From sequence record NC_007456.1: DNA of 39,704 nucleotides; one strand, written 5' to 3'. The position numbers and the translations under genes are program-made. Source of the DNA: Escherichia phage K1F. This document shows, one piece after another, positions 20,997 through 22,939 of the stretch (its first letter is position 1; the number at the start of each line of letters is the position of its first letter). The notes beneath the pieces are model-generated. The model was not told the DNA's origin. It saw nothing but the letters and a program-made list of their open reading frames with translations, and did no database searches.

Positions 20997-21019
20997 ACTA
21001 AACTATCACTATAGGGAGA
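20997..21019 (+). promoter_or_regulatory. Phage RNAP promoter copy 8 (ACTAAACTATCACTATA|GGGAGA), phi10 analog
   Basis: Only copy with full GGGAGA at +1 to +6; sits before major capsid gene. Confidence 0.85.
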
Positions 21020-21135: not shown

Positions 21136-22179
21136 ATGGCAAACGTTCCGGGTCAGAAAATTGGTACAGACCAAGGTAAAGGCAAATCCAGCTCCGACGC
21201 TCTTGCGTTGTTCCTGAAGGTATTTGCCGGTGAAGTCCTGACCGCATTCACTCGCCGCTCTGTAACTGCTGACAAGCATATTGTCCGTACCATTCAGAAC
21301 GGTAAGTCTGCTCAGTTCCCGGTCATGGGTCGCACCTCTGGTGTGTATCTGGCTCCGGGTGAGCGACTGTCAGATAAGCGTAAAGGTATCAAACATACCG
21401 AGAAAGTGATTACCATTGATGGTCTGCTGACTGCCGATGTGATGATTTTCGACATTGAAGACGCTATGAACCACTATGACGTGGCTGGCGAGTATTCCAA
21501 CCAGTTGGGTGAAGCTCTGGCTATCGCTGCCGATGGTGCTGTTCTGGCTGAAATGGCCATCCTGTGTAACCTCCCGGCTGCATCCAACGAGAACATTGCT
21601 GGTCTAGGCACTGCGTCCGTACTTGAAGTAGGTAAGAAAGCCGACCTCGACACCCCGGCTAAACTTGGTGAAGCAATCATCGGTCAACTGACCATTGCTC
21701 GTGCGAAGCTGACCTCTAACTACGTTCCTGCTGGCGACCGTTACTTCTACACCACGCCTGACAACTACTCTGCAATCCTCGCGGCTCTGATGCCGAACGC
21801 TGCTAACTATGCTGCGCTGATTGATCCAGAGACTGGTAACATCCGTAACGTGATGGGCTTCGTTGTTGTTGAAGTTCCGCATCTGGTACAGGGTGGTGCT
21901 GGTGAGACTCGTGGTGACGATGGCATCACTATCGCTTCCGGTCAGAAACACGCGTTCCCGGCAACTGCCTCTAGTGACGTTAAAGTTACTATGGACAACG
22001 TTGTGGGTCTGTTCTCTCACCGTTCTGCTGTGGGTACTGTGAAGCTGCGTGATTTGGCGCTGGAACGTGACCGTGACGTAGATGCTCAGGGTGACCTGAT
22101 TGTCGGTAAATACGCTATGGGCCACGGTGGTCTGCGTCCAGAAGCAGCAGGCGCACTGGTTTTCAGCCCAGCGGAGTAA
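21136..22179 (+). CDS. 10: Major capsid protein 10A (T7 gene 10 homolog), 347 aa
   Basis: Long identity blocks with T7 gp10A (ALFLKVF.GEVLTAF.R.SVT...KHTEKVITIDGLLTADV...AMNHYDV...AILAALMPNAANYAALIDPE...KYAMGHGGLRPEAAGA). Confidence 0.97.
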   Translation: MANVPGQKIGTDQGKGKSSSDALALFLKVFAGEVLTAFTRRSVTADKHIVRTIQNGKSAQFPVMGRTSGVYLAPGERLSDKRKGIKHTEKVITIDGLLTADVMIFDIEDAMNHYDVAGEYSNQLGEALAIAADGAVLAEMAILCNLPAASNENIAGLGTASVLEVGKKADLDTPAKLGEAIIGQLTIARAKLTSNYVPAGDRYFYTTPDNYSAILAALMPNAANYAALIDPETGNIRNVMGFVVVEVPHLVQGGAGETRGDDGITIASGQKHAFPATASSDVKVTMDNVVGLFSHRSAVGTVKLRDLALERDRDVDAQGDLIVGKYAMGHGGLRPEAAGALVFSPAE

Positions 22180-22310
22180 GCACTTTTAGCCAACCTAACG
22201 TCGCTACAGTAGCGGCTGCACCTGAAGAGGAGACTCTAACTCCTCAACAGAAAGCTGCGCGTACTCGTGCTGCGAACAGGGCCGATAAACTGGCTGAGTC
22301 CAACAACTAA
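21136..22310 (+). CDS. 10: Minor capsid protein 10B by predicted -1 frameshift at GGTTTTC (22158-22164), about 391 aa
   Basis: Heptamer G GTT TTC in 0 frame near 10A end; -1 frame stays open 48 codons (QPSGVSTFSQPNVATVAAAPEEETLTPQQKAARTRAANRADKLAESNN) to TAA 22308-22310, just before Tphi. Confidence 0.6.
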
Positions 22311-22313
22311 TTG

Positions 22314-22352
22314 AAACCCCTTGGGTGCCTTCGGGTGCTTGAGGGGTTTTTG
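22314..22352 (+). terminator. Tphi-like terminator (AAACCCCTTGGGTGCCTTCGGGTGCTTGAGGGGTTTTTG)
   Basis: GC-rich hairpin with U-tract; near-identical in form and position to T7 Tphi. Confidence 0.85.
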
Positions 22353-22372
22353 CTTAAAGTGAGAGGAGACTT

Positions 22373-22939
22373 ATGGCTCAATACATTCCACTGAATGCTA
22401 ACGATGACTTAGATGCCATCAACGATATGTTAGCTGCTATCGGTGAACCAGCAGTCCTACAGCTTGACGAGGGGAACGCTGACGTATCGAACGCTCAACG
22501 TATCCTGCATCGTGTCAATCGTCAGGTCCAAGCTAAAGGATGGAACTTTAACATTAATGAAGCTGCTGTCCTGACACCTGATGTCCAAGACAACAGGATT
22601 CGATTCTTGCCGTCATACCTTCGTGTAATGACCGCTGGGGCCACCAGCTACTACAGCAACATGGGTGGATACCTGTACGACCTGTCCACTCAGTCAACCA
22701 CTTTCACCGACCCTATCACGGTAGAGCTTGTGGAGATGAAGCCATTCTCCGAGATGCCTGTGGTCTTCAGGGACTACATCGTCACTAAAGCTAGCCGTGA
22801 GTTCAACGCTAAGTTCTTCGGTAGCCCAGAGTCTGAACTGTACCTTCGTGAGCAGGAAGCAGAACTCTATCAGCAGGTCATGGAATACGAGATGGATACT
22901 GGTCGCTACAACATGATGTCCGACATTGGGAGGGACTAA
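22373..22939 (+). CDS. 11: Tail tubular protein A (T7 gene 11 homolog)
   Basis: ...AINDMLAAIGEP...NA.RIL...NRQ.Q..GW.FNI.E......FSEMP..FR.YIVTKASR.FN..FFG.PE; SD GAGAGGAGA. Confidence 0.93.
   Translation: MAQYIPLNANDDLDAINDMLAAIGEPAVLQLDEGNADVSNAQRILHRVNRQVQAKGWNFNINEAAVLTPDVQDNRIRFLPSYLRVMTAGATSYYSNMGGYLYDLSTQSTTFTDPITVELVEMKPFSEMPVVFRDYIVTKASREFNAKFFGSPESELYLREQEAELYQQVMEYEMDTGRYNMMSDIGRD

Follow-up and report, generated by a model that had tools for sequence, protein, structure and literature searches.

The closest described system is gene 10 of bacteriophage T7, whose -1 shift site was reportedly mapped to Phe codons through protein sequencing by Condron et al. in 1991. In the T7 record (NC_001604), 10B is annotated as a joined coding sequence, and a frameshift efficiency of about 10% has been cited for the gene (PMC1635266). 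A review gives the heptamer GGTTTTC as the T7 gene 10 shift motif decoded by bacterial ribosomes, presents this gene as its example of a signal in which X_XX is G_GU, and describes the CCCC of the terminator, more than 200 nt downstream, as implicated in stimulation of the frameshift (PMC5009743).

Escherichia phage K1F has its own published record at this gene. A -1 frameshift in K1F gene 10 was described as adding 44 triplets to give a minor capsid protein; in the same work, a stable fluorescent g10b::gfp phage was obtained, fusions to 10A failed, and the authors speculated in 2018 that K1F needs 10B (PMC6277420). Display of GFP-EGF on K1F via g10b, with a reported interaction with EGFR, is described in a further paper, whose Discussion puts the number of g10b copies on the K1F capsid head at 26, with no source visible in that passage (PMC10367136). 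Ig-like adhesins have been displayed on K1F through the same end of the -1 frame (PMC13370021). Published display work by others has thus shown that K1F phages carry cargo fused to the -1-frame end, and the 10A/10B frameshift is, in view of this gene10b work, already known for K1F itself. In the K1F literature, we found no junction-spanning peptide, gel evidence, 10B stoichiometry or efficiency measurement.

Annotation of the recoding event is inconsistent across Kayfunavirus, where many records wrongly call the protein of 347-349 aa a 'minor capsid protein' and leave the joined CDS out. The K1F records AM084414 and NC_007636 annotate only 10A, and the 391-aa sequence was absent from the protein collection searched. 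In OM867676 (L003), PV714130 (L086) and the PRF-SP, STP-SP and CRW-SP series, it is the 347-aa frame-0 protein that is labelled 'minor capsid protein (10B)', and OM867676 and PV714130 have no joined CDS annotated. Because the joined CDS is omitted from the records, the predicted 391-aa virion protein is missing from protein databases. For engineering, low-copy display of proteins on the K1F surface through this site is established, and knowledge of the exact slip codon and frame is of practical use; with respect to mechanism, the K1F case adds nothing new, since the T7 paradigm dates from 1991.

Gene 10A and the open -1 frame at its 3' end

The window, that is, the whole stretch of DNA that was analysed, comprises 39,704 nucleotides of K1F (NC_007456.1), and all positions refer to it (Table 1). 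Our analysis indicates that 22158-22164 is very probably the K1F gene 10A/10B recoding site, from which a -1 slip would give a 391-aa minor capsid protein. The host gene is a Studiervirinae major capsid gene (genus Kayfunavirus) with the gp10A fold, as the Gp10A-like capsid domain PF21703 covers 10A residues 60-342 in a Pfam search (E 5e-105), and the exact 347-aa protein is recorded as AAZ72994.1 and CAJ29383.1. The listed genes around the shift site are all on the plus strand, and nothing suggests that the only minus-strand ORF over it, one of 35 aa at 22086-22193, is a gene. The phage promoter core ACTATCACTATAGG was found in seven plus-strand copies with at most three mismatches against 0.01 expected, a count in which the copy at 21002-21019 matches perfectly by construction, since it supplied the search pattern, and the other six differ from it by one to three bases.

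Table 1. Positions of the features of gene 10 and its surroundings in the window
Feature	Position	Strand	Details and basis
Gene 10A, major capsid protein	21136-22179	+	Frame 0, 347 aa, stop TAA 22177-22179
Overlap of the two open frames (0 and -1)	22110-22176	+	22 codons; -1-frame stop TAA 22107-22109 just before
Slippery heptamer G_GTT_TTC (Val342-Phe343), candidate shift site	22158-22164	+	Phase and T7 homology
10B-specific segment	22164-22310	+	-1 frame, 48 codons and TAA 22308-22310; C22164 read twice
Conserved tail core ETLTPQQKAARTRAANRA	22230-22283	+	Alignment with T7, BLASTP E 1e-11
Tphi-type terminator hairpin	22313-22351	+	17-bp stem, UUCG loop, U-run; CCCC at 22317-22320
Putative phi10-type phage RNA polymerase promoter	21002-21019	+	Upstream of gene 10; ACTATCACTATAGGGAGA; function assigned from the T7-like promoter consensus
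Promoter core copies	5557, 17182, 20003, 21002, 25326, 32602, 38857	+	Pattern search

The 3' end of 10A reads CTG GTT TTC AGC CCA GCG GAG TAA in frame 0. A sequence-only reading of the window had placed the heptamer G GTT TTC five codons before this stop, had the -1 frame open from there for 48 codons to the TAA at 22308-22310, just before the Tphi hairpin, and predicted a capsid species of about 391 aa. Each of these statements about the sequence was borne out: TTC and the stop are codons 343 and 348, respectively, with four sense codons between them; the 48-codon stretch was reproduced, within a -1 frame that is already open from 22110; the hairpin begins three bases after the 10B stop; and the shifted product was computed as 391 aa. 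Its calculated mass is 41.0 kDa, compared with 36.4 kDa for 10A. The 10B product exceeds 10A by 44 residues (391 - 347), and the -1-frame tail itself, QPSGVSTFSQPNVATVAAAPEEETLTPQQKAARTRAANRADKLAESNN, has 48.

The -1 ORF (open 22110-22307) overlaps the end of 10A, passes its stop and cannot be started independently, as it contains no ATG, GTG or TTG codon; no start-to-stop ORF of at least 30 aa appears for the -1 frame in the ORF list. The +1 frame at the end of 10A is crowded with stops. Since only the overlap is open in both frame 0 and the -1 frame, a productive -1 shift must fall inside it. In the Pfam match, the capsid domain runs up to residue 342 and no further, precisely to the candidate shift site, and this boundary, along with the lack of a start codon in the -1 ORF, means that the tail could arise in no other way than by extension of the capsid protein at its C terminus.

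Between 21000 and 22400, the window is 99.9% identical to AM084414, with a sole difference at 22285, where it has A and AM084414 has C. The change converts Ala to Asp at 10B residue 385; Ala stands at this residue in AM084414, in Penshu1 and EcoDS1, and in the relatives with a K1F-type tail that were examined. As base 22285 lies beyond the 10A stop, the substitution is invisible in the annotated proteins.

The slippery heptamer and the route to 10B

The heptamer lies in the phase that fits tandem slippage, as (22158-21136) mod 3 = 2. The 10A gene of T7 ends GTG GTT TTC AAA GTG GAG TAA, with an identical in-phase heptamer four codons before the stop, and in both phages G_GTT_TTC follows a common RPEAAGAxVF motif of the orthologous capsid gene, four to five codons before the end of 10A. 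The canonical form X_XXY_YYZ has three identical X bases, whereas X_XX is G_GT here.

Under the mechanism that we favour, the majority of ribosomes on the late gene 10 mRNA would terminate at the TAA at 22177-22179 and yield the 347-aa major capsid protein, and a minority would move one base backwards on G_GUU_UUC, with tRNA-Phe in the A site re-pairing to UUU instead of UUC and tRNA-Val in the P site re-pairing, only partially, to GGU instead of GUU. Decoding would then resume with CAG at 22164 and run for 48 codons to the 10B stop, and the product would combine the complete capsid fold with the 48-residue C-terminal tail and take its place in the assembled head as a minor subunit exposed at the surface. 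By analogy with T7, we infer both the exact slip codons and a ribosomal, as opposed to transcriptional, mechanism in K1F, and an efficiency of the order of 10% would be expected on the same grounds.

The tail could also be reached by another route, through deletion of a base in the T-run by the phage RNA polymerase or through a ribosomal shift elsewhere in 22110-22176. The K1F display data are compatible with either mechanism, as they show a capsid fusion in the -1 frame and do not map the site, and the partial P-site re-pairing allowed by the heptamer also speaks for some such route. The T-run, however, comprises only four bases, and the runs on which transcriptional slippage is known to occur are far longer. 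When the codons of the overlap were read by eye, no in-phase slippery motif other than GGTTTTC was seen, GTT-TTC is strictly conserved, in line with tRNA re-pairing, and the same heptamer is the one named as the ribosomal shift motif of T7 gene 10 (PMC5009743). We therefore consider a different route very unlikely and retain tandem ribosomal slippage on G_GTT_TTC as the preferred reading.

The length of the -1 ORF alone is without significance (p 0.07-0.12), given that 7% of dinucleotide shuffles of 22164-22372 were open for at least 48 codons, a proportion that rose to 12% with gene-10 composition. A null derived from how far the -1 and +1 frames stay open beyond the stop codons of the window's 39 remaining long ORFs was dropped in favour of these shuffles, since in a compact genome the genes that follow push its values up. 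The count of GGTTTTC in the genome is likewise ordinary (3 against 3.7 expected); only the copy at 22158 was found in slip phase inside a gene, as the one at 1546 lies out of phase and the remaining one on the minus strand. The probability of an in-phase heptamer within the 22-codon overlap is approximately 1.3e-3, and jointly with the openness of the frame approximately 1e-4. An ORF length compatible with chance would also suit a second alternative, in which an ancestral 10B has left the -1 frame behind as a remnant without expression and GGTTTTC has been kept only for its conserved Val-Phe. It is the comparative evidence, not the length of the ORF, that decides the case.

Homology of the tail and spelling of the site in relatives

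The K1F tail aligns with the T7 10B tail, QSGVMLGVASTVAASPEEASVTSTEETLTPAQEAARTRAANKARKEAELAAATAEQ, at 36 positions, 23 of them identical (64%; pairwise BLASTP E 1e-11), demonstrating that the two are homologous, and the full-length 10B proteins are 70% identical. This homology removes chance as an explanation for the extension. Both tails contain the core (E)TLTPxQxAARTRAANxA, within which L368, T369, P370, Q372, AARTRAAN at 374-381 and A383 of 10B are invariant among K1F-like sequences, L011, L033 and T7; conservation is poor in the N-terminal half of the tail. In both phages, the 10B stop stands just upstream of the Tphi hairpin, inside which lies CCCC. The two also differ in several respects: the K1F tail has 48 residues and that of T7 56, the T7 insert ASVTSTE is missing in K1F, and the K1F tail ends in DKLAESNN whereas that of T7 ends in RKEAELAAATAEQ.

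Selection on the -1 frame was evident from the codon positions at which the K1F and T7 tails differ, with 11, 13 and 31 differences at -1-frame positions 1, 2 and 3, respectively, over 44 aligned codons (chi-square p 0.0013). The pN/pS of the tail was 0.31 against T7 and 0.49-0.51 against the short-tail relatives L011 and L033, values that rest on a protein-guided codon alignment, which somewhat favours a result of selection. The position bias and the pN/pS against T7 together indicate that the -1 frame has been read as protein since the K1F and T7 lineages split, as would not be the case for an unexpressed remnant. Among the closest relatives, pN/pS was about 1, as a remnant would show, and this value (1.25 on 17 changes) rests on too few substitutions to be informative.

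The spelling of the site in relatives bears on the same question. A tblastn search with the 48-aa tail gave 33 records at E values of around 1e-3, and, as the low-complexity filter masks the Ala/Arg-rich core, we relied instead on 78 IMG/VR loci, plus T7 and T3. Val-Phe is spelled GTT-TTC or GTT-TTT in 31 relatives, 30 of which have a plausible -1 extension of at least 42 codons. A recognisable tail was present in 0/21 of the relatives that have a GTC, GTA or GTG Val codon and no Lys-type site; their -1 frames are junk that runs through the terminator or into gene 11. The contrast between the two groups has a Fisher p of 3e-8, without correction for phylogeny. A third group has N_NNA_AAG a few codons further on, as in T3, with Big_2 Ig-like extensions of about 88 aa. 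The synonymous wobble base of the Val codon thus tracks the extension, being T in 31/31 slippery relatives and in 0/21 of the others, a pattern predicted by selection for slipperiness and not by a heptamer kept for its Val-Phe.

The one exception among the 31 relatives, L009, has a 1-nt deletion at approximately 1838-1845 of its locus (window 22177-22180) that changes GTAAGC to GTAGC, whereby the 10A stop becomes TAG and the otherwise conserved tail moves out of the -1 frame. Behind the deletion lies either an error in sequencing or natural loss of 10B; the out-of-frame tail suggests that 10B may be dispensable, as that of T7 is said to be. In a further locus, L018, the end of the extension is garbled.

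Such dispensability and the frame-breaking deletion lend the remnant alternative some support, as does the failure of folding and of an Rfam search to reveal a proximal stimulator. Set against it are the wobble base of the Val codon, the third-position bias with its pN/pS of 0.31 against T7, and the K1F phages with -1-frame cargo that fluoresce and are reported to interact with EGFR, and we accordingly regard an unexpressed remnant as extremely improbable. The central proposal of the sequence-only reading, a T7-type programmed -1 frameshift giving 10B, gains support from T7 homology, -1-frame selection, the spelling of the site in relatives and published K1F display. The resemblance of the extension to the T7 10B tail that it noted was also confirmed, as ETLTPQQKAARTRAANRA at 22230-22283 of K1F is matched by ETLTPAQEAARTRAANKA in T7.

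Stimulators, possibly exchangeable extensions and related recoding systems

Folding revealed no stable structure 5-9 nt downstream of the site, the first predicted hairpin lying 35 nt downstream at 22200-22216, and there was no Rfam match in 21900-22500. The local fold at the site is ordinary (z -0.77), and the z of -2.5 obtained for a longer region may be due in large part to the terminator, whose hairpin is the biggest element of that fold. The terminator is annotated at the same place in EcoDS1 and Penshu1. A distal stimulator in the K1F Tphi is possible by analogy with T7; the K1F CCCC lies approximately 153 nt downstream of the site, compared with more than 200 nt in T7, and the G-run that follows the T7 site is absent in K1F, where no complementary G-run was found near the site. 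The GGAG just before the 10A stop of K1F, T7 and T3 was considered as a relevant element and discarded, as close relatives have GGCG or GATG there. For the tail itself, Pfam returned no match, and AlphaFold2 modelling on a seven-sequence 10B alignment failed (mean pLDDT 31); a helix at residues 370-390, with a pLDDT of about 60 in that failed model, is weakly suggested.

Several unrelated extensions were observed behind the same slip site. An extension of 91-96 aa in the -1 frame (...DVTDWS...YSRRTNSLYFKA...VRSFNV) follows GTT_TTC in the Kayfunavirus-like phages L010, L013-L023, L026, L027, L070, L074 and L075, the slip sequence being C_GTT_TTC in L026 and L027, and one representative of this module had no Pfam match. 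L028 carries a Big_2 domain at the same slip site. In two metagenomic loci, L042 (approximately 1250 to the end) and L058 (approximately 965 to the end), the capsid gene ends in CTG GTT TTT, and more than 277 codons of the -1 frame pass without a stop before the locus itself ends. This extension comprises a Big_2 domain (Pfam E 1e-11) and, after it, some 190 residues in which GDS..., GTNN... and DGTH-like motifs occur. These motifs, recognised by eye, were read as an SGNH-hydrolase/esterase, an assignment that Pfam did not support on the partial sequence and that we did not adopt; judged from its sequence, the extension could be a capsid-displayed enzyme made by frameshifting.

The extension cargo is modular and the slip site fixed, with G_GTT_TTC/T preceding a short T7-like tail, the 91-96-aa module, Big_2, or Big_2 with esterase-like residues. 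The capsid body of L011 (capsid approximately 801-1838) is 97% identical to that of K1F, and its tail, QRGLTSRKLVGDTESLTEVEQELTPQQKAARTRAANKARKEAELAATE, ends like those of T7 and L033 and unlike that of K1F, a mixture suggesting that recombination may have occurred at or near the shift site. We tentatively put forward, as a possibility somewhat short of probable, that the slip site of gene 10 is no mere peculiarity of T7 and serves, in phages like K1F and those related to them, as a fixed docking point at which unrelated C-terminal capsid decorations are exchanged by recombination. If this were true, the K1F signal would work without a proximal stimulator, whatever lies downstream.

Compared with other recoding systems, K1F would share with dnaX and IS3-type signals tandem or A-site tRNA slippage on a heptamer by E. 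coli ribosomes. Those signals have a proximal hairpin or pseudoknot, whereas folding shows no proximal structure in K1F, and dnaX additionally has an upstream Shine-Dalgarno-like element, of which none was seen by eye just upstream of the K1F site. T3 and phiYeO3-12 resemble K1F in that their orthologous capsid gene gives a minor capsid protein through a -1 shift only a few codons ahead of its stop; unlike K1F, they slip on Lys codons (C_CCA_AAG), and what is added is a Big_2 Ig-like domain of 89 aa (Pfam E 4e-10) unrelated to the K1F/T7 tail. Kluyvera phage Kvp1, a T3-like phage with a different tail, slips, as K1F would, on a U-run and Phe codon, TTTTCA, and its 10B, shifted at this sequence, has been verified by mass spectrometry. 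In the Kayfunavirus members Penshu1 (MK903281) and EcoDS1 (EU734172), site, tail and terminator are nearly identical to those of K1F; as predictions at the level of annotation, the Penshu1 record gives a joined 'minor capsid protein ... produced by -1 frameshift', and that of EcoDS1 notes a 'region of similarity to gp10B' that 'may be translated via slippery sequence'.
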